A stretch of DNA of 63,908 nucleotides, counting the filler, from Vezdaea acicularis (taxonomy: Eukaryota): the NCBI GenBank assembly GCA_026025075.1. It is 5 parts of 5 records of this genome, joined end to end, with 100 filler letters (N's around TTAATTAATTAA, not from the genome) between each part and the next. Parts side by side here need not be neighbours in the genome. Positions count along the whole stretch, not along the records: positions 15,401 to 29,993 come from JAPEUI010000227.1; 4 more parts are not named here. One strand, 5' to 3'. Positions 15,301 through 59,308 of the stretch are shown piece by piece. The number at the start of each line of letters is the position of its first letter. Position 1 is the first letter of the stretch. Position numbers and translations under genes: made by a program. The notes beneath the pieces were generated by a model. The model did not search any database. It was not told where the DNA came from and worked only from the letters and a program-made list of their open reading frames with translations.

Positions 15301-15400
15301 NNNNNNNNNNNNNNNNNNNNNNNNNNNNNNNNNNNNNNNNNNNNTTAATTAATTAANNNNNNNNNNNNNNNNNNNNNNNNNNNNNNNNNNNNNNNNNNNN
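15301..15400. other. Artificial contig-joining spacer
   Basis: N44-TTAATTAATTAA-N44; stops in all six frames. Confidence 0.98.
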
Positions 15401-15702: not shown

Positions 15703-18227
15703 CTAGTCCAAATCCACTGGGTCTTCTCTTGAGCCTGCCCCACTATAGGGATGAGGCACTGGATTTTGTCTTAAAGTCCTGATCCTACGACGAGCAACCC
15801 TTCGTGTAGTAGCGTTCTGTTGGTGTTGAGCCACTTGCAACTGGGGCACACCTCGGGTTGCGGGAGGAGCAACCCTTGGCGTGGTAGCATTCTGTTGGTA
15901 CTGAGCCACCTGCAACTGGGGTACACCTTGAGCTGCAGGTAGAGTCAAGCTTTGTATCGTAGCGTTCTGTTGGTGCTGAGCCGCCTGCAATTGGGGTACA
16001 CCTTGGCTTGAAGGAAGAGCAAGCCTTGGTATGGTAGCGTTCTGTTGGTGCTGAGCCACCTGCAATTGGGGCACACCTTGTTGTGAGGGAACAGTAACCC
16101 CTGATGTGGTAGCTTTATCATGGTTCTTAGCCACAAATTTTTGGGCACAATCAGGGCAACGTCGAGCTGACCAGATTTCGCCCTTATTTTGTTTACCCTT
16201 TTTACGGCGATTTTTATTCTGTCTGGCAGACTCATTTCCCAGTCCGATAGGCTCGTTTCCCAGTCTGAAAGACTCGTTTCCCAGTCTAACAGGCTCGTTT
16301 CCCAGTCTGACAGGTTCGTTTCCAGCATTCTGGGCTCGCCTTTGTCGTTCCGCCGCAATTCTTGCTAAAAGCTCAGTGTTACTGAGCTCTTCCAGCGGTT
16401 CATCCTCTACGCTGGCTCCGGTGGGCATAAGAGGTTGAAGTGATTGATGCTGTACATCAAGTTTCATCCCCCCCCGGTCATTCCCTTCTTCCTTTAGCTC
16501 TCTTAAAGGTCGATCTGACAATTGGATCTGTGAAAGTGAATCATTCAAACTAGTGAAATTTGGCGCGGCAGGCTGTTGCGGGTAATGCAATCTAGCCCGG
16601 TCAAGAGGCCTGTCAACGACTGGACAAACTGTAGGACCAATGATACTTCCAGGGGTCGCATTCTCTTTACCGATATTGCTAGTCCTGGAAGCCTGACAAG
16701 GATTTATCTGGAGATATGGGTCGTTGCGCTGTATTTGGCGCTCTCTTCTCTTCAGACCTGACATAGTGAGACCTTTAGCTCCAAGAAAGTTCCCGAGTTG
16801 AGAAAGCGTAAGCGAGGGCGGAACTTGAAATCGATGTTCAGGGTACACTTCGCGAAGTCGCTGAGCTCGGTATTCATTCTTCTGCTGAGTCGTCGTCTTC
16901 GAGAGTCGTCCATTGACCCAATTCTGATCTGGCTGACGTCCATTCGTTCCCCGTATCTGATGAGGAGAAGGTTGTTGCGCCTGCAGTTCGTGACTCTGAG
17001 CTCCTTGAAGGAAAGCTTTATTGACTTGTGCGCTTGCCGGTTGCTGTCTTTGTACTATTTGACGACCTTCAAGTTGTCCTGGCGTCTGGGGAGGGAAGGG
17101 CCATTGCACATGGGATTCATGACTCTGGGCTCCTTGAAGGAAATATTGATTGATCTGGGCATTTGCCGGTTGCTGTCTTTGTATTCTTTGAGGGCCTTCA
17201 ATTTGCCCTGGCCTCTCTGAAGGAAAGGGCCGTTGCGCCGGGAACTCATGAATTTGAGCGCCTTGAAGGACAGCTTGATTAATTTGGACGGCTACCGGTT
17301 GCTGTGTTTGTGTGCTTTGAGGTGCTTCAGCAGGTGGTTGCCATAGACCCTCGAAATATAAGTTAACAGCTATGTGAAAGAGTCAACCACGACATCATCT
17401 ATATTATCAAGACTTCGGCGTACCATTCTCCATGTCACCACCTGCCACCTTTCTAATTTCTGTCAATGCCACTGGAGTGAATCTTCGATCTACGATGGTC
17501 TCAAATAGGTCCGCATCAAAGTCATGCGGAGTGACTCGGGTGATTTCCTCTTCCGCTGTCTCATGTTCGAAATCTGCTAGTATTGACCTCTCTCTCGGGT
17601 TGGAAGGCTCAGGGTAGTCGAGTACCATCTGATTTGGATAGTGTGTGACCACGTCGGCAATTGAGGCCTGAGCAGCAGGTTCTTTCGGGACAAGGATGCC
17701 TAAAGACTGCTCCGCTCGGTTTTGTGCTTGATTGGATACCATACGGGTATATTCGTGATTTACAAGAGTAGAGAACATGTAATTAAATGGAGCAGGCGAG
17801 CCATACTTAGAGTGAGGCGAGTGGCGCTGGAAATCGACGGGATGATCGTTTATTTCCCTGGAGTTGGACCCAGTGGCCTTGAGCAGAAGTCAGCATGGGC
17901 CTAACTTGAGTTGCAAGTTCACAGCATTCCAGCAGATCTGTTGAGTGTTCTTGCCGCATAGTTAGAGGTAACGATGCTCACCATTGTAGTTTGCTGTGCC
18001 CATACTGGGGCGCGGGGGCCATAGGCGGGTATCTGCAAGCTTCGAAGCCCTCCGTGGTTAAGGTTAGTACGATCATGGCTATTGTCTGTATCATCTAGAG
18101 CAGCTTCTGAACCCGCTGTAAGCAGAGGTTGGTCATCAGCTACCATCGTTGAACGCCTCTCGAGGTTGAGTGTTTGAGGTATCCTACTATGTTCCAATCC
18201 ACCAGCCATATCTTCATAATATCTCAT
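15703..18227 (-). CDS. Orphan repeat-rich protein (~788 aa) with a UBA-like segment and a C-terminal SIM-like motif
   Basis: Exons 18227-17982, 17877-17424, 17369-15703 (2367 nt, in frame). Introns GTGAGC..GCTGAC..AAG and GTACGC..TAG. Splicing creates FDADLFETIVDRRFTPVALTEIRKVAGGDMENAVNLYFEGLW. Ends GSREDPVDLD*. Start codon uncertain. Confidence 0.6.
15790..16085 (-). repeat. 4 x 75-nt coding tandem repeat (GVPQLQVAQHQQNAT..., 25 aa)
   Basis: ttctgttgg recurs at 15815, 15890, 15965 and 16040. Confidence 0.9.
16231..16325 (-). repeat. ~4.5 x 21-nt coding tandem repeat (GNEPVRL)
   Basis: ctcgtttcccagtctRacagg-type units; protein GNEPVRLGNEPVRLGNESFRLGNEPIGLGNES. Confidence 0.9.
16960..17330 (-). 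repeat. ~3 x 129-nt coding tandem repeat (43 aa, QQP..QIN..FLQGAQSHE)
   Basis: ccttgaagg recurs at 17003, 17132 and 17261. Confidence 0.85.
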
Positions 18228-18291
18228 TTCTTCATTCCTAACCACCGGTAGACTTAGTAAAGATCGTACCGACTTTTCTTGGCCATGAGCT

Positions 18292-20645
18292 TCACCTCTC
18301 TTGATACAGCTCGTTTAGCCTTTTGCGATGCCACGTGAACGATGAGTAATTTCCTCCGAGAATAGGCTCCAAAATACTCTTGCCTACACGATCAGCAGGA
18401 CTCGCATTTTCCAGATTACCCATCTGCTGTCGAAGGGTATCATAAGCATCTGCAAAGCATTTTAGGACCCTAGCAATATTCCCAGAGCCACCAGATATAT
18501 CGTTGGAAGCATTATTAGGATCTTCTATCGAAAGACGATTCATGTTCTTGTAGTGAATGAATTGATGTTGAGACTCAAATGAGCGTGTCAGCTTGGTTCA
18601 GACAGGTAAGGAGAAGCATACCTTTTCAAAGTATCCAGGTGGACTCAGTCTAATGCCCACTCTGTCAATATCAAATTCTTTGCCATACAGCTCGAAGAAC
18701 GCCATCAGTAGCTCTCCAAGGTTACGTGTAGTAACCATGTTTCCACTCTGGACTGCACCCATATTCTGCAAAAGACTCGTGACCATACAGGTGACCGAGA
18801 ATCCGCCTAAACCTCCGGTCGAGACGTCGTTCAAATTCCGCATTGCCAACAACTGTTTGACTAGAGTCACAATGATCGGCATTGCCGGGAATTGATGTTT
18901 CCAGAGGTTGAAGGTCTTATTTGCAATGATCCCGGTCATGTTCTCCAGCGACAGATCGACCCGAAGCCGCGTCTTTCGATCAACGAATTTGATGAGTGGA
19001 ACTCTAGATTTCGGGATGACAATTATTGAGTCAGGAATAGCGATGTCTTTCTCAATAAGCAATTGTTGAATGCTATACAAGTATTTACGAGCGGGCTCGA
19101 AGTGCTTGTACGACCCAGAAGTAAAGGCGGCAGAGTTCATTACAAGGTCCATATCAGCATCTGGCAGATAGAGTCCTGCAGCAAAAGACCCAAAGCTGTG
19201 GATACTTGCTTCTTTCCATCTTGAACACAGGGTGCTGGAAAGACGAATGACGAGCTCATCACGAATAATTTGCTCATGGCGCTGAGGTCGGACATACTCC
19301 CAAAAGTCGTGGATCTCCTCATGTAGCCTATGTATACAATAAGCCGGACTAGCAGCTGGAAAGGCCCACAAAGATAGTAGATTCAAATAGAAGAAGCTTG
19401 ATTAAATGTTCGAGAGACTTACCAGATTGAAACATCCTGGTCTTTTCGGCTTCCAATATTGATCCAGGGTGTGGTGGTCTGCCCCCTAAGCGGAGCCCAA
19501 GCATGCACGATTCTGCCGTTACCAGCCCTCCTTATTTTGGAAGGAAGAGGAGGCTCATCCAGATCATCATCACTTTCCAAATGTCTCTTTCTCTTTCCAA
19601 GTGTAGCACTTGGTGGAGCTCTTTCTTCCTCTAAATGACGTCGGCTCGCTTTGGTAGAGACTAAGTTTTCGTGCCCATCCTTGCCATTTGCACGTATGGG
19701 TGTGTTTAGCGTACCCTGTGCCCTTATCTTATGAGAAGAGCCACTATCAGTCTTATGCTCGTCACCACTAGAGTCTAGCGAGATGAATCCCTCGCGACTG
19801 GTAGCCTTTGCGTCAGTCTGAGGCTTTTCAGCCACGCGGGCCTTTCGAATGAGTTTGACAACGTCCTTCTTCTTTGCCTTAGCGTCATTCGGTGGTGGTA
19901 AGGCTGAATATGGGTCCGGATTGGACCACTTTTGATTGGGAGTATCGTTACCGAGGGCACCTCTGAGTGACTCTTGAGCTGCTTGCGATACGACTAGTTC
20001 TTCCGGGCGGTTCTTGTCAAGAGCTGAAGAAATTCCCGAAGCCTCAAGTCTTTCGTCCTCCGACTCTAGGTCTGATTGAATATCCATCTCGTCTTCCTGA
20101 CTATCAGAAACGTCATTCACGTCAATGTATTTGTGACTACCATCATTTTCTAGGGACATTCCTGCCAGTTGCTCAGGAGTTCGCTCCCTTTCAGCCTGTA
20201 AAAGTGGGCGAGTCGCAGCAACCTTGTCCACTCTGATGTTGGAAGGCTGTCCGAAACGCTGTGAACGTCCATTGCGTACGCGCCTTTTTTTATGGGTTGG
20301 TGCTGTGCCATCGGCTCTTGGCTGATAGCTTTGAGGCCCGTGAGGGAATCGAGGAGCAGCTGGAATGTTGCTTGGCAATTGTGGGTTAAAGGCAAAATGT
20401 CCCATATCTCGATCGTGTAAGGGATAATTGCTGTTTTGGCTGTTTATGGGAGGCATAGAACGAGAACGATGCTGTGGAGTAGCCAACTCAAATCGGGCTG
20501 GGCTTGAAACGTAATGTGGTTGTGTTTGATTTAGACCATTTGGATACATAGGCAGCCCGTGGTGAGGACCAGTGAAGACTGGATTACCATTTTGAAGATA
20601 GCTTGACTCATATCCATAAGGGTTTTTAGGGGGAGGCTGCCCCAT
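18292..20645 (-). CDS. TRF4: Non-canonical poly(A) polymerase Trf4/Cid14 (TRAMP), ~736 aa
   Basis: WLHEEIHDF; nucleotidyltransferase motif FGSFAAGLYLPDADMDLV; GGLGGFSV; PAP-associated LSIEDPNNASNDISGGS. Exons 20645-19423, 19327-18622, 18573-18292; the second acceptor appears to be GAG. Confidence 0.9.
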
Positions 20646-21420
20646 GATGTACTGCCTCAGCTTGACGTTGTGGAGTTATATGTTAACTCTTGAAGAAAGA
20701 CCAAAGAGACAAAGACGGTGTTGACACTCGACTTGTGTGCGATCGGTGTACGAGACCTTCGCAGACTTTACAAGAAAGGAAAGGGGGAAGAGAAACGATA
20801 CAGCAGAGAGCCTACCACGAATGGCTAAAGTTGAAGCTGACGGAGATGTACCATACGCTGTAGCCTTTGCAAGGAAGGAAGTGAAAGTCCACGACGGAAT
20901 GAAAACAACAAAAGAGCCTCGACTTTGTGGGCAAGAAAAGTTTTCGCTTCGATAGGCGAAATGAGGCTCTGATAACGTGATTGTATGCCCGTGTCAATAG
21001 TGTTCTGCTGCTTCCGGTTGATACAGAGAGTGGCGAATCCGCTAGGTCGCTGCTACAGTAGAGGTGTGCTCTCCGAAGATATGAATTGATGGCCTAACTC
21101 TGAGCAGTAACCTCAAGGTTAGTCCCTGACTTTCGGGATGACGGAATGTTACTATTTACCCTCAGTCCTTCTTAAGCATATGAATACCACATTGAATCTC
21201 AAAATAGCCTTCAAATCGTTACGCAAAGTTGGTGAATAAGCTTGATCCTTTGTTAGTAGCCTCTTTATTGATTCCTTGTTCATGGCTACCGAGAACAAGG
21301 ATCATTCGCCGCTTGCTTGGATGACTAACATTAGCTTTTAACCTTAGCCGCGGCAAGGTATTTTAACAAATCAATTGTTTTGACACGAACCTCTATCCTA
21401 CCCGTTTTGGATTTTTCGTA

Positions 21421-22471
21421 ATGGGTAACGATGGCGGAAGGTTAGTCTCCACCCTTCATCCATGATACACAAACTAATGCCATCCACCACAGCATACCAA
21501 AGCGCCGCGAGTTAGTGAAAGAAGCGGCGCGCAACCCTACCAGCTCCGAGCTTAAGGAAACACTGCAGGAGCAGCAGGCATTTCAGTGGACAACATGTCC
21601 TCTTTCCCATGAGCCCCTGATACGGCCTGTAGTCTCCGACTCGTCAGGTCGGCTGTACAATAAAGACGCCATCCTAGAATTCCTCCTTCCCTCCGTTGAT
21701 GAGATATCCGTTAGCAAGGAAGATGGGGAAGAGGTACTCCAAGGAAGAGTCAAGGGGCTAAAGGATGTAGTGGAGGTCAAATTCGAAGTCGAAGAGGGCA
21801 GCCTATCCAAGGATGCAACAAGTGAGCTCAAGCGCGAGAGATGGGTCTGCCCGGTGACACGGAAGCAGCTTGGTTCAAAGGTCAAGTCTGTCTATCTAGT
21901 ACCCTGCGGACACGCTTTTTCAGAGAGCGCCGTGAAAGAGATTGCTGGCGATAGCTGTTTACAGGTGAGCTGAGTCCCAAGATGTCTTAGAGAAATTCTT
22001 ACCAGACCTCAGTGTAACGAGTCGTTCTCGCAAGAGAACGTCATTCCCATCCTCCCCCTCACCTCACCTGAGTTGGAAAAGCTCGAGTTGAGAATCGCAA
22101 AGCTGAAAGAGCAAGGCTTGACGCACTCGCTCAAGAAAGCTTCAGGCGCAGGTAAGAAACGAAAGAAGCATGGTGATACGAACGACTCATCTGAAGCACT
22201 ACCAAATGATTCAAAAAAGCCTCAGAAGAGCTCAGCTCCACAGGACGGAAGTAGTGCATCGCTCTCCAGCGGCAAGATCCACAATGAGGCCACGGCTGCT
22301 TTGACGGCAAAGGTCCTTGAGTTTGAGAAAGAGCGGAATAAGCGGCGAAAGCTCGGTCTGAACGATAATCTGAAAAGTCTGTTCTCAGGAACGAAGGACG
22401 GCGAGAGTCTCAACAAGACTGGCGATTTCATGACGAGGGGCTATTCGATACCAAGCGGCGCAAAGAGATAG
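21421..22471 (+). CDS. RTF2: Replication termination factor Rtf2 (RING-like), ~316 aa
   Basis: MGNDGGSIPKRRELVKE, WTTCPLSHEPL, WVCPVT, PCGHAFSE, CLQC. Introns 21441-21492 and 21965-22012. Confidence 0.92.
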
Positions 22472-29993: not shown

Positions 29994-30093
29994 NNNNNNN
30001 NNNNNNNNNNNNNNNNNNNNNNNNNNNNNNNNNNNNNTTAATTAATTAANNNNNNNNNNNNNNNNNNNNNNNNNNNNNNNNNNNNNNNNNNNN
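29994..30093. other. Artificial contig-joining spacer
   Basis: N44-TTAATTAATTAA-N44. Confidence 0.98.
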
Positions 30094-35577: not shown

Positions 35578-36432
35578 ATGTCCATCCTAAGTTCCCCCCT
35601 CCTCCCCCTTCTTCCTCCGCCCATCCTCCTATTCATTTCCTCCCTCGCCTCGCCGCCTCCTTCCTACTTCTCCTCTAAGAACAACGTCTTCAACCTCTTC
35701 TTCGTCAAGATCCTTTGGGCCTGGACAACAGTCGCTTTCTTCCTGCTCCGCCCTACAAGGAATGCCCTCGCGCGCTACCTGGCTTTTACAGCCTATTGGA
35801 TCGTCTGGACGCAATGGTTCTTCGGCCCGCCCATCATCGATCGTGGTTTCACCGTCACGGGCGGCAAGTGCGAGGGCGAGGTGAGCGGGGACCATTTCAC
35901 AAGCTTGGCATGTCGTGCCTCTGGCGGGAAATGGGTCGGCGGTCATGACATCTCCGGGCATGTCTTCCTCCTTTCAATCACCAGCGTCTTCCTTTGGATG
36001 GAGGTGCAGGCCATACAGCTCCAGACCCCCGCAACACAGAGTTATGCCACTAAGCCTGGGCCCATCGAGCTCGAGATCCGGAACAGCTTGCAAAATGCCA
36101 GTCGCGGGGCAGGTTCTCCGGCGAAAGGAACGGCTACACCGAGTACGACAATGGCTAGTAAGGCCCCGAAGCCAGGCCAGTGGACGCTAGAAATGAAGTT
36201 CGCGATGGGTGTCGCTTTGATGAGCCTGTATATGCTGATGATGACGGCGGCGTACTTCCACACGGCGTTTGAGAAGGTGAAGAGCTTCTTGCAACTTTCT
36301 AGATATAGAGCTAATTATTTCAAAAAACAGATATCTGGCGTTATTGTGGCATATGCTGCGATTCTCGCCGTCTACGTACTTCCGATGGTGGTTCCAGCGT
36401 TGCAGAGCTACATTGGAATGGTGAATAGATGA
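35578..36432 (+). CDS. SCS3: FIT-family acyl-CoA diphosphatase Scs3
   Basis: KNNVFNLFFVK; QWFFGPPIIDR; WVGGHDISGHVFLL; YFHTAFEK|ISG after removing the in-frame intron 36277-36330. Confidence 0.88.
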   Translation: MSILSSPLLPLLPPPILLFISSLASPPPSYFSSKNNVFNLFFVKILWAWTTVAFFLLRPTRNALARYLAFTAYWIVWTQWFFGPPIIDRGFTVTGGKCEGEVSGDHFTSLACRASGGKWVGGHDISGHVFLLSITSVFLWMEVQAIQLQTPATQSYATKPGPIELEIRNSLQNASRGAGSPAKGTATPSTTMASKAPKPGQWTLEMKFAMGVALMSLYMLMMTAAYFHTAFEKVKSFLQLSRYRANYFKKQISGVIVAYAAILAVYVLPMVVPALQSYIGMVNR

Positions 36433-44671: not shown

Positions 44672-44771
44672 NNNNNNNNNNNNNNNNNNNNNNNNNNNNN
44701 NNNNNNNNNNNNNNNTTAATTAATTAANNNNNNNNNNNNNNNNNNNNNNNNNNNNNNNNNNNNNNNNNNNN
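44672..44771. other. Artificial contig-joining spacer
   Basis: N44-TTAATTAATTAA-N44. Confidence 0.98.
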
Positions 44772-46432: not shown

Positions 46433-47734
46433 TCACTCCGGGCCGCGTTTCGACCTCCCCTTGTTCTCCTCTGCTACTTCGTCTTCACTTTCTTCTTCGC
46501 CCACATCTCCCCACCCGGAGCTTCGCCGACTCATCTTGCCTGTGTGTTGCTCTTTCATGCTTACCTCTCTTGGGCTTGCCAAAGGGCTATTGGTTGCGCC
46601 AGCGCTGCCTGGCACACTGTCGTTTCGGCTGTGTCCGAGAAAGCCGCTGTGCATACTGGCGCCATCACCGCCAGTGGTCGTCGCCTTCCCAGCGTAGTAG
46701 CTGCTACGCTCGCTGGTCAAAGCTGGAGCAATGCCGGCCGTAGAGTAAACGCTGGCACGCTCATTGCCAGTCATACCGCCCACGGAGGGACGGCCTTGGT
46801 GCATTCCGCTAGCCGTTGGGACAGGATTATCGATGTTCGAGCTTAGTACGCTGAGGGGAAGGCTTTCCCGAGAGCCACCCCATACGGAGGAAGGCGCAAG
46901 CGCACGCACTGACGCGTCAGTATCAAGCGAGTGCCGACGGCGTCTTTTCGAGGACGAGGCAAGGGTGAGGATGGAGGCGTTGTCTGTGAGGAGGTTGTTC
47001 GCTATGGCCGAGCTGTAAGTGGTTGGGTTGCCGCCAGGCAGGTGCTGAGGGGCGAGGTGGGAGGGAATGGCAGAGGCGGAGGGCGGTGAAGATGGAAATT
47101 GGTTGATGTACTGTTGGTAGTGAGATGGTCCCGTCTGCGCACTATGTACCACAGCGCCATTCTGCTGAATAGTACCGGGCCCTAGTATGCCCGCTGGAGC
47201 TGTAGATTGAATAGTTGTAAGAGTAGTCGTCAAGGAGCGGACGGATGGTGCTGGCGAGGAAAACGTACTGCCCGCGCCTCCGCCGCAATGCGTGCTCATG
47301 CCACCGCCTAATGTACCACTGGCATCACCACCGGATGAAGCTTTTATTGATGTCGGGGTGCCAGTGGGGATGGTGTCGGGATTTGTAGATACCGTTGGAG
47401 CTGCGGATTTCGCGCTGAGCTCTCGCGGTCCAAGGCCGTCGGTGGACGAACGCGCAGACTCTCGCTCATTGACAGAGTAGCTGCTTCTTTGCTCGGGAGG
47501 AGAAGCGAAAGAGAGTGGACCTTTGCTGGTCAAATCTTCGTCGTGATTGTAGAGATGGGCTGAGGCAGGATATGGGTTATTCCGTTCGGCTGCGGATTTC
47601 TTCGATTTTGACATGGGAGTGAGCCTGGTGGAGTGATTTTGAGAGGGGGCTTCTGAGGACGAGCCCTTTAAGCTGGCTATCTTTTTCATCCATGTTGAGA
47701 ATGGTCTCCTCCGAGAGTTTCGATCTTTTGTCAT
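46433..47734 (-). CDS. Conserved fungal low-complexity protein of unknown function, ~433 aa
   Basis: Single ORF with blocks I recall from Pezizomycotina hypotheticals: RRRPFSTWMKK, STFSSPAPSVRSLTTTLTTIQS, TDNASILTLASSSKRRRRHSLDTDASVRALAPSS. Confidence 0.75.
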   Translation of the reverse strand: MTKDRNSRRRPFSTWMKKIASLKGSSSEAPSQNHSTRLTPMSKSKKSAAERNNPYPASAHLYNHDEDLTSKGPLSFASPPEQRSSYSVNERESARSSTDGLGPRELSAKSAAPTVSTNPDTIPTGTPTSIKASSGGDASGTLGGGMSTHCGGGAGSTFSSPAPSVRSLTTTLTTIQSTAPAGILGPGTIQQNGAVVHSAQTGPSHYQQYINQFPSSPPSASAIPSHLAPQHLPGGNPTTYSSAIANNLLTDNASILTLASSSKRRRRHSLDTDASVRALAPSSVWGGSRESLPLSVLSSNIDNPVPTASGMHQGRPSVGGMTGNERASVYSTAGIAPALTSERSSYYAGKATTTGGDGASMHSGFLGHSRNDSVPGSAGATNSPLASPREVSMKEQHTGKMSRRSSGWGDVGEEESEDEVAEENKGRSKRGPE

Positions 47735-52381: not shown

Positions 52382-55300
52382 ATGGCAAACTCAATCACCG
52401 ACCCAGAGGTCTTTGAGCATGCCATGGCATCGCTTTTTGTCGCATCTGTGTTCACGGATTCAGACTTTGATAAGATGAGTCAGCTTCTTCTACAATTTGG
52501 CAAAGTTGAGTGGAGCTATAGGCCTAGGACATATGCCGTTCTTCGCATGATAGATGAAGTGGATCTATTTGATAGTATTATAGCTGAAGGGCTAAAAGAT
52601 ATAGCATTTCCTTATACTCCGGAACAGTTGCCGCAAGCTCTGAACAGTCCTTCACTTCGATCCAAATTTCTTGAAAACCAAATGATGGTTTCGACAAAGG
52701 CAACTGATTTGGAGAATAAGAGTGGCCGGCACAGGCATTTTGCCCAGGACGCGGATATACATTTTGATAACCTAGGGATTCTTGGGCGCGGTGGTTTTGG
52801 AGAGGTGCATCATGTTCGCAGCAAGTTATCAAGAGAAGAGTTTGCTGTATGTCTTTCTGTTCAGATATCGTATCGATACAATAGTTGACACTCTCTACTC
52901 CAAATTTTAATTTCTACTAAGTTATCTTAAGTTCACATATTTGATGGATAAAGCTAACTTTGCCTTTGATACTTAGAGAAAACGACTCCATCGAAGGAAA
53001 GCATTTTCTAGAGATAAAGATGCTGTTATGGCATTTGAGAATGAACTTACAAACCTCAAGAGACTCTCACACCTTCATCTCGTCCAATTTGTTGGTTCAT
53101 ATTCTGACCCTAAATATATCTGCATCCTTATATCTCCGGTAGCGGACTGTGATCTTAAAGAACTCTTACTCCAAACGCCATTTCCAAAGAAAGACCTGAT
53201 ACTGCTTCGTGGATTTTATGGCTGTTTGTGCTCTGCTGTTTCTTATCTCCATAATAATAAATGCCGCCATAAGGATCTAAAACCCGAGAATATACTAATC
53301 AAGAATCAAAAGGTGTTGATCACAGACTTTGGTACAGCACGGGACTGGAGTAATCGTTCGCGAAGTATTACGGCTGGAGATACGGGTGCCTATACTAAAT
53401 TATATGCTGCACCAGAAGTCATATCTGAAGATCCACGAGGTTCATCTGCAGATATATGGTCACTAGGCTGTGTCTATCTTGATATGACGACAGTACTCAA
53501 CGGAGAATCTTTAGATGACAAATTCGAATTTTTTGAAAAGCGCGGTACGCTTAAATGGACTCCTGCGGAAAATCTAATGGCTCTTGATATGTGGTGCAAG
53601 CGAGAGCTGCCAAAACATAGCGAGGAACAGCCCATCGAATGGATTCGGCAGATGATGCAAGAGGATCGAAACATTCGTCCAACTGCCGCCGCTCTACTGG
53701 ATCAAATCCAGACTGACAATGGACCTCAAGTCTATTACAATTCTTGTTGCAACGGAGAAAACGAAAGTTCAGATGACGCGTCATATCAGGGTTCAATCTT
53801 CGACGAGAAAATAACAACTCATACAGTGATAAAGCACGTCAATGAAGCGCTCACCCCTTCAGCCCTTCGAGGTGATAAGGAGGAGACATTTTCAGGAAAT
53901 TCTGATTCAATGGAAGCTAAGAAGATAAAAGATGACGAATATGAGAATGCGATACTGCTTCTGAAGATGAAAGGATTCTGGATTTCTTCGAAACCCTTTG
54001 AAATAGATGAAGCACTCTTATGGGCAGCTGAAAATGGGCACAAGGCAGTTGTGCAACTACTGCTAGAGAAAGGAGCGGACGTGGCCGCAAAGGACGACCA
54101 GGGTTGGACGGCGCTGCACGTTGCAGCTCACTACAGGCAGGAAGTGGTAGTGCGACTGCTGCTGGAGAAGGGGGCGGACGTCGCTGTGACGGACCACATG
54201 GGACAGACTGCGCTGCACCTGGCGGCCATATATGGACAGGAGGCGGTGGCGCGGCTGTTGCTCGAGAAGGGGGTGGACTTCGCCACGAAGGACGACCAGG
54301 GTTGGACGGCGCTGCACGTTGCAGCTCACTACGGGCAGAAGGTGGTGGCGCGACTGCTGCTCGAGAAGGGGGCGGACGTCGCTGCGAAAGACCACATGGG
54401 ACAGACGGCGCTGCACCTGGCCGCCCCTGAGGGGGAGGAGGCAGTGGCACGGCTGTTACTGGAGAAGGGGGCGAATGTCGCTACGAAAGACGACCAGGGC
54501 CAGACGGCGCTGCACGTTGCAGCTCATTACGGGCAGGAGGTGGCGGTGCGGCTGCTGCTCGAGAAGGGGGTGGACGTTACTGCGAGGGACCACATGGGAC
54601 AGACTGCGTTGCACCTGGCGGCCCCTGAGGGGCACGAGGCGGTGGCGCGGCTGTTACTGGAGAAGGGGGCGGACGTCGCTGCGAAGAACAACCAGGGGTG
54701 GATGGCTCTGCACCTGGCGGCCAAACACGGGCAGGGCGCGGTGGCGCAACTGCTGCTCGAGAAAGGGGCGAATGTCATCGAGAAGAGCGAAGAGCAAGGA
54801 GAGACGCTACTGCATTGGGCCACCAAATACAAACAGGAGGCCGTGGCGCGGCTGCTACTCGAGAAGGGGGTGGACGTCACTGCGACGGACAACCAGGGGT
54901 TGACGGCGCTGCACTGGGTAGCTGCAGGGGGGCAGGAGGCGATAGCGCGGCTGCTGCTTGAGAGGGGGGCGGACATTTCCGCAGAGGACATCCACAAGAA
55001 GTCAGCGCTGCACTGGGCGGCCAGACACGGGCAGGAGGCAGTGGCACAGCTGCTGCTCGAGGAGGGGGCGGACTTCGCCACGAAGGCCGACCAGGACCGA
55101 CCGGCGCTGCACTGGGCGGTCGCATTCGGGCATGAGGTGGTGGCGCGGCTATTACTGGAGAAGGGGGCGAACGTTGCCACGAAAGACGACCAGGGCCAGA
55201 CGGTACTGCACGTTGCAGCTCAATACGGGCACGAGGTGGTGGTGCGGCTTCTGCTGGAGAAGGGAGCGGACGTCGCTGCGAAAGACCACATGGGACAGAC

Positions 55301-55739
55301 GGCGCTGCACCTGGCGGCCATCTACGGACAGGAGGCGGTGGCACGGCTGTTACTGGAGGAGGGGGCAAACGTCGCTACGAAAAACGCCCATGGGTGGACG
55401 GCGCTGCACCTGGCAACCAAACACGGGCAGGAGGCGGTGGTACGGCTGCTGCTCGAGAAAAGGGCGGACGTCAATGTGCGGGACAACACGGGACAGACGG
55501 CGTTGCACCAAGCGGCCATAGAGGGCGAAGAGGGAGTAGCACGGCTATTGCTAGAGAAGGGGGCGAATATCGACCTAGCGAACATGTATGGCAAGACACC
55601 GGTGTACTACGCGGCGTTAAACGAGTTTCATGCGGTGGAGCGGATGCTACTGCAGAAGGGGCAATTCAATTCATTGAGAATGGACCAGCGCAAATTGACT
55701 AGGAGGGTGCGCAAAACAGCGGCTAGGCCTCAGAAGTGA
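52382..55739 (+). CDS. Ser/Thr protein kinase fused to 17 ankyrin repeats, ~1075 aa
   Basis: GRGGFG, FA|RK, HKDLKPEN, DFG, APE, DIWSLG. Intron 52847-52976 (GTATGT..GCTAAC..TAG) joins the two ORFs in frame. Confidence 0.9.
54009..55661 (+). repeat. Ankyrin array, 17 x ~99-nt units with high internal DNA similarity
   Basis: TALH.AA..GQE.V.RLLLEKGA.V..KD..G units; acggcgctgcac and ctgctSgagaagggg recur. Confidence 0.93.
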
Positions 55740-56898: not shown

Positions 56899-59115
56899 AT
56901 GTCTGCAAGCATTCTTCAAGTGCCTTTTGAGGGCTTCCAAATAATAAAGCTAGCACAAAGCTTCAGCCTTAGGGCCTACCAGGCTCTTTATGACGACCGT
57001 ACGGAACCGGTCGGGATTGTCGCCGTTATTCAAGCCTTTGGCCTTGTAAACCCTTCTGCGCAAACACTGGACCGCTTTGCGCGAGAATTGAAAAATGGAA
57101 CAAGTCAACGGAAACTACAAGGCACGGGCATAGAACTAGTTACAGGGCAAAGCTCTACCACCAAGGAAATGACAAAAACACAGGAAGGCGAAGTTGCCTT
57201 GATGATCTTGTCATTTCTGTTGCATTCTCTAAGGATTGATACGGTGACCGAGATTGTCAAAGTGACGGTCAATAAAACCCCAGAACATCTTGTGCCAATC
57301 AAACCACGAAGGTCCCAGATTGATAGTTTGGTGAAAGCAGTCGATTCTCAAACGTCATGTGTGACATGGCAAGAGACGATCCGCGAGGCTGAAGTTTCTG
57401 TTGGTGAGATGCCACTCGCATCAGCGCGATCTAACTCACCACTGCCTTCTTGGGCTTTTGATGTGCCGGCTGAGAGTCTCTCTGAGTATTTCCGCGGCCT
57501 GTGCAGCATCTGTCGATTTCCGGATGAATATCTATGCGTGCTCGAGACAAGCGGCAGTCTCTCGGTCCCTTTTGCTCTGGCAAGTTCAATTTGTGGACTT
57601 CGTGTTTGTGTGATAGTTGACGGTGAAGTAGTCCATGGAAGCTCGTCTGCTGGACAGTGGCAAGTTCGACTTGAAAGAATTAAAGATCGTACCTGGACAG
57701 CAATCAAATTTGGACGGAAAATGGAGAACATTCAAGACTTACTAGTAGTGGATGAAGTTGGTCCAGTAAGAGCTAACAAGATTCCTGTCAAAGGAATAGG
57801 AAGGTCGACCACCGTTGGGCAAGGCATGAAAGAGCCTGAAGCAGACGATCTTGCGCAGTGTGCGATTGGCATCGCTTCAAAAGCTTTAAATGACATGCAG
57901 CGCGAAGTATTGGACTACAGTGAAGAAGATTTGGATTCTGTATCTTATCAGAGTAACTCCACATCGTCCAAGGGATCAAGGACCGCGTTAACGCCAGTGA
58001 AGACTCGTGTATGCGCTAGAGTCGTTGCTTTATGGTGGGATTGTTCGATCAGCCACGCGGCAGAGATGCTAGCGGAAGGACGAGGTTCCGTTGCTTTACA
58101 GGATGACAACCTAGGATGGGATCATATCAAATTTCCAAAGAGGACTCTTGGCAATATAACTAGCTTCGAATCTTTAGACGGGACCAAAAAAATGCAACGC
58201 TACCGTCAAACGTGTGAGCCTTGCTCTAGAGACGACTATGTTAGGCTTCTGCACACATTGACATCTCAGGTATTGTTGCTGAGCTTCCTAGAGTTTAACG
58301 ATAGGTCAGAAAACTCCATTCGTGTCCGGAATGGAAGCAGGCCACATAATACTGTTCTCGGCAGAGCGATAAATGGCACACGAAAACCTTCTTCTCTTGG
58401 TCAAACCGATGTTCTTCGTAGCTGGTATTATTGGATAGCGGGCATCTCCCCTAAAGAACTTGATCGAGTTGATGCATATTCTATGGAAGGATTCCTTGTT
58501 TACCGAAATCTTTTGTTTGACCTGAGTCTGGCACCATGCGCTAGTGAGACAGTCATTGTCGAGCCCGGTCACATCCTCTTCGAACATCGCCGATCAGATC
58601 TAGTCGTGAGCGCCGATCATGGATACGCGGTGATAGGACATCCTCAATATAGGGAGAGGAAAACTGGCCCTTGTCGGATAAAATCTGCCGATAAGACTGG
58701 ACCGGTTAACCTTATATACACTGTAGAAGAACAAGAAAATAAGCTGGAACTTACCTTGCAGCTCAAGGTTGGTGATTCGGTTACAATCGATACTTCCTTC
58801 CATGCAGTTGCCATGGAGAGTTGGAAGTTAGAGTACGATGACACAATTTTGGATTGCAGCCACGGAAGCGCTCCGCGAACCGAATTAATAAGTGGGGAAA
58901 CAATTGAAGAACTGACCCCTGGCTTTGGGCCTGAGCTAGAGACTGGACCACCGGCCTGGAGATCGCTGAAGGTTTTCAAGTCATACAACAACTCTCTCGG
59001 TGAAGTTGCAGCTTTGATGAGCGCGAATGGTCGGGGTTTGCTAAAAACAAAAGATTGCTTGCGCTGTTGTCTTTCTCATGCGCAATCAGCCGGTCTTGAT
59101 TTTGTTATTGACTAG
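56899..59115 (+). CDS. Hypothetical protein, 738 aa, intronless
   Basis: Uninterrupted ORF of globular composition with C-terminal DCLRCCLSHA; no motif I can name. Confidence 0.75.
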   Translation: MSASILQVPFEGFQIIKLAQSFSLRAYQALYDDRTEPVGIVAVIQAFGLVNPSAQTLDRFARELKNGTSQRKLQGTGIELVTGQSSTTKEMTKTQEGEVALMILSFLLHSLRIDTVTEIVKVTVNKTPEHLVPIKPRRSQIDSLVKAVDSQTSCVTWQETIREAEVSVGEMPLASARSNSPLPSWAFDVPAESLSEYFRGLCSICRFPDEYLCVLETSGSLSVPFALASSICGLRVCVIVDGEVVHGSSSAGQWQVRLERIKDRTWTAIKFGRKMENIQDLLVVDEVGPVRANKIPVKGIGRSTTVGQGMKEPEADDLAQCAIGIASKALNDMQREVLDYSEEDLDSVSYQSNSTSSKGSRTALTPVKTRVCARVVALWWDCSISHAAEMLAEGRGSVALQDDNLGWDHIKFPKRTLGNITSFESLDGTKKMQRYRQTCEPCSRDDYVRLLHTLTSQVLLLSFLEFNDRSENSIRVRNGSRPHNTVLGRAINGTRKPSSLGQTDVLRSWYYWIAGISPKELDRVDAYSMEGFLVYRNLLFDLSLAPCASETVIVEPGHILFEHRRSDLVVSADHGYAVIGHPQYRERKTGPCRIKSADKTGPVNLIYTVEEQENKLELTLQLKVGDSVTIDTSFHAVAMESWKLEYDDTILDCSHGSAPRTELISGETIEELTPGFGPELETGPPAWRSLKVFKSYNNSLGEVAALMSANGRGLLKTKDCLRCCLSHAQSAGLDFVID

Positions 59116-59208: not shown

Positions 59209-59308
59209 NNNNNNNNNNNNNNNNNNNNNNNNNNNNNNNNNNNNNNNNNNNNTTAATTAATTAANNNNNNNNNNNNNNNNNNNNNNNNNNNNNNNNNNNN
59301 NNNNNNNN
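59209..59308. other. Artificial contig-joining spacer
   Basis: N44-TTAATTAATTAA-N44. Confidence 0.98.

Follow-up and report, generated by a model that had tools for sequence, protein, structure and literature searches.

Where does a gene for the poly(A) polymerase Trf4 end if its stop codon lies on a possible splice donor? This question is raised by a stretch of DNA from Vezdaea acicularis (assembly GCA_026025075.1), which is 63,908 nt long with filler and is called the window below. On its minus strand, the TRF4 core is closely followed by an open frame. A first-pass annotation of the window had taken this frame as an orphan gene that can be spliced to TRF4. Our analysis makes it likely that positions 20645-15703, on the contig piece 15401-29993 (JAPEUI010000227.1), hold a single gene of six exons that encodes Trf4/Cid14, the fungal non-canonical poly(A) polymerase, with the spliced form of about 1527 amino acids as its main product.

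The TRF4 core and the 58-nt junction

Trf4 puts short A tails on faulty nuclear RNAs for the exosome, together with its Air and Mtr4 partners in the Trf4-Air-Mtr4 polyadenylation (TRAMP) complex. In the window, exon 1 (19423-20645, minus strand like all parts of the gene) encodes a disordered N-terminus by open reading frame (ORF) and gene model, and its conserved motifs are also present in Trf4/Cid14 homologs. Exon 2 (18622-19327) covers the nucleotidyltransferase palm and the start of the poly(A) polymerase (PAP)-associated domain. The end of this domain and the last core helix are placed in exon 3 (18296-18573) by the gene model and Pfam. The core matched PF22600 (E 4.6e-23), PF01909 (E 6.4e-9) and PF03828 (E 5.1e-10), that is, a Pol-beta palm and a PAP-associated domain. 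The catalytic GSF...DxD motif was read intact in the translation at residues ~452-468. A search with exon 2 gave 355 homologs at E<=1e-40, and the named matches include TRF4 and cid14 of Aspergillus; a search with exon 3 among proteins of near length returned one protein. The best matches of the TRF4 protein came from lichen-associated and other Pezizomycotina, with a top identity of 58% over exon 2. The enzyme would be expected to work as Trf4 does.

The short gap described in the first-pass annotation was confirmed. The TRF4 stop (TGA, 18294-18292) and the next ATG (18227) have 64 nt between them, which leaves little room for 3' end formation and a promoter. The stop overlaps a donor as claimed: the G closing the last Arg codon opens GTGAAG at 18295. 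The 58-nt segment starting there (intron 3, 18238-18295, phase 2) has an AG/GTGAAG donor, a branch-like TACTAAG at 18259-18253 and a TTAG acceptor ending at 18238, and its removal joins TRF4 in frame with the downstream frame. If it is retained, the immediate TGA ends the unspliced reading after 736 amino acids. When it is removed together with two further introns (17981-17878 and 17423-17370), 1527 codons remain open to the end at 15703, in agreement with the length proposed earlier.

DNA contigs of two other runs from the same study (X2 record 4 and X3 record 11) cross the junction, and none of the variants listed for them falls within positions 18238-18295. An assembly artefact at the junction is ruled out by these two independent-run contigs. 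Run X5, from another study, covered pieces of the TRF4 core; the junction and tail lie outside its coverage, and this gap carries no weight. We also counted the stops that could be bridged by a donor, a branch and a YAG acceptor over 45-80 nt with the frame open for 80 codons. The real window had 4 such stops among 509, the TRF4 stop being one of them, versus 9 of 13054 in 30 shuffled windows; the rule was written to admit this donor, and the two ratios are a guide rather than a probability. The bridged stop is more than chance, and the 18296>18237 splice is probably real in this organism.

The first-pass annotation also held that the same donor is needed in the SCS3 intron of the window. The SCS3/FIT intron (36277-36330, plus strand) does begin with AAG/GTGAAG and is likely, but at 54 nt, in frame and stop-free, it is not forced by the frame. 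It lies on a different contig piece from TRF4, and its support is welcome but not necessary. Its retention would give 18 extra residues ahead of the last membrane helix.

The downstream frame and the tails of Trf4 homologs

The downstream frame proved to be a homolog of Trf4 tails rather than an orphan gene, and a tail is present in 69 of 91 scorable Trf4 relatives. Among the 120 listed homologs, 29 are ORFs that do not reach exon 3, 22 stop no more than 35 residues past the core, and 69 are tailed. One of the 69 is P0037, a gene model in which TRF4 is fused with RTF2. It had contaminated the first tail profile and was dropped from later counts, leaving 68 tails. These share an RA.RL..[YF]P....P module in up to several copies each (64 instances, in 57 of the 68). 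A hidden Markov model (HMM) profile of the module, made from homologs only, had a sole match among the 1878 six-frame ORFs of the window, namely the last exon of the downstream frame (E 4.6e-5; next 0.2). The matched module, RA.RL..YP....P, lies at 16798-16893 and is predicted to be helical. An unseeded whole-tail profile aligned the same stretch with a domain E of 0.01. When the instances were split by lineage, the 43 from outside Eurotiales also matched the frame (E 2.1e-4).

The end of the frame gave a second match. A terminal DP[IV]x[IL]D-type motif was found by pattern search in 29 of the 69 long homologs. The acidic-hydrophobic end of the window frame (15706-15741), which closes with DPVDLD and is SIM-like (SIM, SUMO-interacting motif), resembles these ends. 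With a matrix of 24 distinct homolog C-termini, it ranked top of 1859 frame ends (9.1 versus 1.6 for the next) and second of 83347 positions anywhere. Two independent tail hallmarks thus stand in the right order directly behind TRF4, which indicates that the frame is most likely the normal C-terminal tail of Trf4 across an ordinary intron. A fusion of two unrelated genes was rejected, since the tail motifs belong to Trf4 itself. The joined product of ~1527 amino acids stands, but not as a fusion.

The modelled tail module has three helices with a predicted local distance difference test score (pLDDT) of 75, from 11 sequences. Compared with solved structures, the model found no matching fold (Foldseek best E 4.0; best Z 4.1). 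A likeness to the SAP domain, seen by eye, was dropped as unsupported by Pfam. Pfam has no family for the module or the terminal motif. In P0001 (Sclerophora amabilis), P0105 and P0012 the module is repeated two to four times, which suggests a small repeated binding unit. Our literature search for isoforms, tails and SUMO motifs of fungal Trf4/Cid14, with most subscription papers outside its scope, surfaced no description of the tail.

The same split-and-join anatomy was found in relatives. They were compared through the sequence clusters of 20 chosen homologs, which hold annotated proteins, intron-reading ORFs and unannotated sequences, and intron codons and phases were deduced from protein pairs or residues. 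Unannotated sequences that lack introns 1 and 2, whose contigs are 2.8-4.0 kb long, are presumably RNA-derived. In Letharia, Alectoria, Pseudevernia and another relative, ORFs cross introns 1 and 2 and stop at the core-tail intron, with the tail as an ORF of its own. Annotated or intron-free sequences of these Parmeliaceae-type clusters link the core with the tail, and the read-through stop lies at codon 32 of the last helix. Teloschistaceae showed the same pattern, and in the annotation of Caloplaca aegaea the gene is cut into two adjacent models (P0251 and P0253). In another fungus, the genomic ORF P0272 diverges from the intron-free P0268 and P0075 after an Arg at codon 23 of the last helix. 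This is the codon of intron 3 in the window, and the residues read through there agree with a phase-2 GT donor. The tail behind that intron also has the RA.RL..YP module. In Paecilomyces, one genomic ORF crosses from the core (exon 3) to the tail without an intron. A metagenome scan for DNA of the relatives' TRF4 region gave one unrelated weak locus at 26% identity.

Some relatives have short proteins. Those of Claussenomyces, Vezdaea and P0279 stop at codon 22-23, as may follow from retention of such an intron, or these may be true ends. The annotated Trf4 proteins P0107, P0071, P0004, P0017 and P0279 stop at or soon after the intron codon; they may be cut-off gene models with a missed tail. 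The single-gene reading is based on the open frame, the homology of the two tail motifs and the split-and-join anatomy in relatives.

Constitutive splicing and other readings of the locus

From this basis we infer that the introns are spliced in this organism, that the long form dominates and what the tail binds. Intron 3, which divides the catalytic core from the C-terminal tail, would be an ordinary intron of old evolutionary origin, and its splicing would give the main product of ~1527 amino acids. The stop at 18292 would then be a by-product of a phase-2 donor starting with GTGA. The first-pass annotation had expected either a normal or an extended Trf4. The long Trf4 fits our results, but the 736-aa form is probably the intron-retained reading rather than the normal form, and would be at most a leaky retention product.

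Several points weigh against a single gene with a long main product. The DNA runs with this stretch are labelled moss metagenome, and the splicing of these introns was read from DNA alone. The closest homolog is only 58% identical in exon 2, and in a quick tree of 38 core sequences the window TRF4 sat on a long branch without a clear position. The tail matches cover short stretches, and the seed pattern of the module was picked after the motif of the window had been seen. A profile from the 21 Eurotiales instances did not match the frame at E<=1, and the score of its end (9.1) is below all 24 leave-one-out scores of the homologs (9.6-32.6). The donor and branch of intron 3 are weak (GTGAAG without +5 G; TACTAAG), and a further in-frame donor lies at 18307. 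The commonest intron position in relatives is codon 32, nine codons beyond codon 23 of the window, and 24 of 49 short sequences end there. Leotiomycetes end at codon 28-32, most at 30, and 11 of the 49 short sequences end at 29-30. These tail-less ends are probably genuine, so a short form can be viable.

The weak sites could instead serve regulated alternative splicing, in which frequent and controlled retention yields both the 736-aa and the long Trf4 or tunes the level of TRF4. We regard this as unlikely, with a modest chance of being right. The weak donor and branch make some retention of intron 3 plausible, and retention keeps the whole catalytic core, as in the short Leotiomycete proteins. 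Ten of 27 hand-picked unannotated sequences are without both upstream introns; one of them (P0048) leaves the frame exactly at the core-tail intron, but the other nine are spliced there. In Xanthoria parietina, two proteins share one locus tag (P0221 and P0223) and one ends at the intron, yet the second isoform and P0075 end early further on, which looks like general splicing noise. The main text of one Xanthoria paper (10.1101/2024.08.16.608140), whose link to this annotation is not established, mentions no isoforms. Retention is the commonest type of alternative splicing in fungi according to one study, but in Cryptococcus, where it is also common, it is described there as not efficient at diversifying the proteome (PMC5006051). 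The immediate stop was rejected as proof of a selected switch, because any phase-2 donor starting with GTAA or GTGA gives one automatically, and it would be no sign of selection. In Yarrowia, retention almost always yields a premature stop owing to the structure of intron boundaries, as stated in another report (PMC2911113).

It is more doubtful that the tail has been split off, so that 18292 is the true end of TRF4 and the former tail has become a gene of its own from 18227 or a decaying remnant, with the splice signals as relics. Short Trf4 does occur in other classes, the donor is weak and the ATG lies 11 nt past the acceptor; but donor, branch and acceptor are all kept in frame (chance rate 9/13054), and the gap is only 64 nt. 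Also in favour of a split, the tail is highly diverged, and no homolog was found for exon 5 or exon 6. The search for relatives of exon 5 had one match (E 4e-4), a Thr/Ser-rich repeat protein judged spurious; that for exon 6 had none among 8000 candidates of 307-979 aa, and an Atlas search for relatives of the tail gave nothing usable. Five of the seven listed strain differences in the tail exons alter a residue and none breaks the frame, which is consistent with a loosely constrained but open frame. Against a split, all 791 tail codons over three exons are open, and both tail motifs are retained. One gene with another join, be it through donor 18307, different acceptors or a micro-exon of 15 nt within intron 4, would put the 1527-aa model a few residues off and is very improbable: there are 132 in-frame donor/acceptor pairs on paper, 18307 (GTATCA) shares the acceptor and intron 4 allows a reading as two short introns, but 18295 retains the conserved Tyr of the last helix and equals the intron codon of another fungus.

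The long tail, its surroundings and known systems

In the preferred model of one spliced gene, five introns separate the exons. Intron 1 (19328-19422, 95 nt, GTAAGT...TAG) has a position common to relatives, whose genomic ORFs read through it. Intron 2 (18574-18621, 48 nt, GTATGC...GAG) would use a rare GAG acceptor, which leaves 12 residues to the next conserved motif (12-14 in homologs); the AAG alternative leaves 3. Exon 4 (17982-18237) starts the tail and includes the ATG at 18227 that had been taken as the start of the orphan. The predicted intron 4 (17878-17981, 104 nt, GTGAGC...AAG) could also be read as two introns of 44/45 nt flanking a 15-nt exon, with the frame unchanged. This organism may tolerate non-YAG acceptors, with GAG at intron 2 and AAG at intron 4. 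The last 30 codons of exon 5 (17424-17877), otherwise tail, resemble a Rad5-type UBA-like domain over its first three quarters. Intron 5 (17370-17423, 54 nt, GTACGC...TAG, with in-frame stops) interrupts this segment. Exon 6 (15703-17369) encodes the remainder of the tail to the stop, Q-rich and disordered.

The tail is exceptionally long. A check of Trf4 lengths in relatives, proposed in the first-pass annotation, gave 791 amino acids for the window versus 82-393 in 68 relatives (median 171.5), so that it is twice the longest of them. About 188 residues come from extra copies in three tandem arrays, at 16987-17329 (129-nt unit, 2.7 copies), 16221-16323 (21-nt unit, 4.9 copies) and 15792-16134 (75-nt unit, 4.6 copies). 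The tail is as disorder-rich as the TRF4 N-terminus. A lone CxxC in a basic stretch (~16145-16160, minus strand) has no second pair and only a weak Pfam noise match.

The UBA-like, repeat and SIM-like modules announced earlier stand in part. The three arrays, the UBA-like segment and the SIM-like end are there, but the UBA match is sub-threshold and the SIM motif is loose, which limits the proposed link to ubiquitin and SUMO. The last 30 residues of exon 5 matched positions 1-30 of the 40 of PF24975 (fungal Rad5 UBA-like) with 21.2 bits (E 3.2e-4, cut-off 27), a score that covers these positions, the remaining ten being expected on the next exon. The start of exon 6 was seen in translation to offer a plausible last helix, which we take to be like that of the Rad5 domain. 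A search of solved structures with the UBA-like piece gave a chance match only, and a Pfam scan at E<=0.01 found the segment absent from 44 of 44 long homologs. It would be either a ubiquitin reader specific to this lineage or an insert in decay. Within the lineage, the tail would have grown by tandem repeats and come to hold this segment.

SIMs are described as a four-residue core with typically three hydrophobic residues plus an acidic flank (PMC12751080), with an alternative type of two hydrophobic residues followed by DLT (PMC5573446). PVDLD of the window combines Val, Leu and Pro with acidic flanks and a D where T is expected, which makes a loose fit; homologs have PIEID, PVMID and PIVID. 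The terminal motif is probably a SIM. It is conceivable, though we think it improbable, that the old weak intron switches the polymerase between forms with and without a tail, that the tail of filamentous-ascomycete Trf4 consists of the module and a terminal SIM, and that in this moss-associated fungus it has also gained a working ubiquitin-binding domain, with TRAMP steered to ubiquitylated and SUMOylated chromatin or ribosome precursors.

These results correct the gene model. Gene prediction has repeatedly ended fungal TRF4 at this place and left the tail as an orphan, so that the short Trf4 entries of databases may in some cases be truncated. The results also draw attention to a tail module and a terminal motif that are conserved in Trf4 of filamentous fungi. 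Should this motif bind SUMO, nuclear RNA surveillance would be linked directly with SUMO in tractable species; should the UBA-like segment function, TRAMP would gain a ubiquitin reader in this lineage.

Head to head with TRF4 lies RTF2 (21420-22471, plus strand). RTF2 also adjoins TRF4 in Teloschistaceae, where one model fuses both (P0037) and others have adjacent locus tags; this adjacency looks like old microsynteny, with a different orientation implied. Elsewhere in the window are the integrase and SH3 region of a Ty3/gypsy-type retrotransposon at a contig end (27969-29657, minus strand), a 903-aa ORF with a protein kinase followed by ~16 ankyrin repeats (53028-55739, plus strand), and two long ORFs without a Pfam match at E<=0.001, of 738 aa (56899-59115, plus strand) and 433 aa (46433-47734, minus strand). 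Four identical linkers, each a 12-base six-frame stop word between two runs of 44 N, occupy 15301-15400, 29994-30093, 44672-44771 and 59209-59308. They separate contigs of ~14.5 kb, so gene order across them is meaningless and the pieces may differ in organism.

The closest known systems are the long-tailed Trf4/Cid14 proteins of lichen-associated and other Pezizomycotina, for example Sclerophora amabilis P0001, Letharia P0122, Alectoria P0144, Pleopsidium P0070 and Trichoglossum P0051, which carry the annotation hypothetical protein or polynucleotide adenylyltransferase. They share with the window the core domains, the places of introns 1 and 2, the core-tail intron, the RA.RL..YP module and the terminal DP[IV]x[IL]D. 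The window differs in its longer tail, three tandem arrays, UBA-like segment and two extra tail introns. Trf4 of Eurotiales (Aspergillus, Paecilomyces) also has a core and a tail with the helical module. However, that tail is ~105-140 aa, none ends in the terminal motif, and Paecilomyces is without the core-tail intron. Compared with fungal Rad5 (PF24975), the window segment comes without the HIRAN, helicase and RING parts and sits in a Trf4 tail. Trf4 of Saccharomyces cerevisiae, the TRAMP enzyme, belongs to the same family; it is not known to have such a long tail or a UBA. The terminal motif of the window looks SIM-like rather than like the Nrd1-interacting motif (NIM) of yeast Trf4. The NIM, a C-terminal short motif, docks on Nrd1 (PMC10767929), and it provides a precedent for a terminal docking motif. 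By analogy, the disordered tail in the window may act as a docking arm, whose helical module and terminal short motif would recruit the enzyme to its partners.

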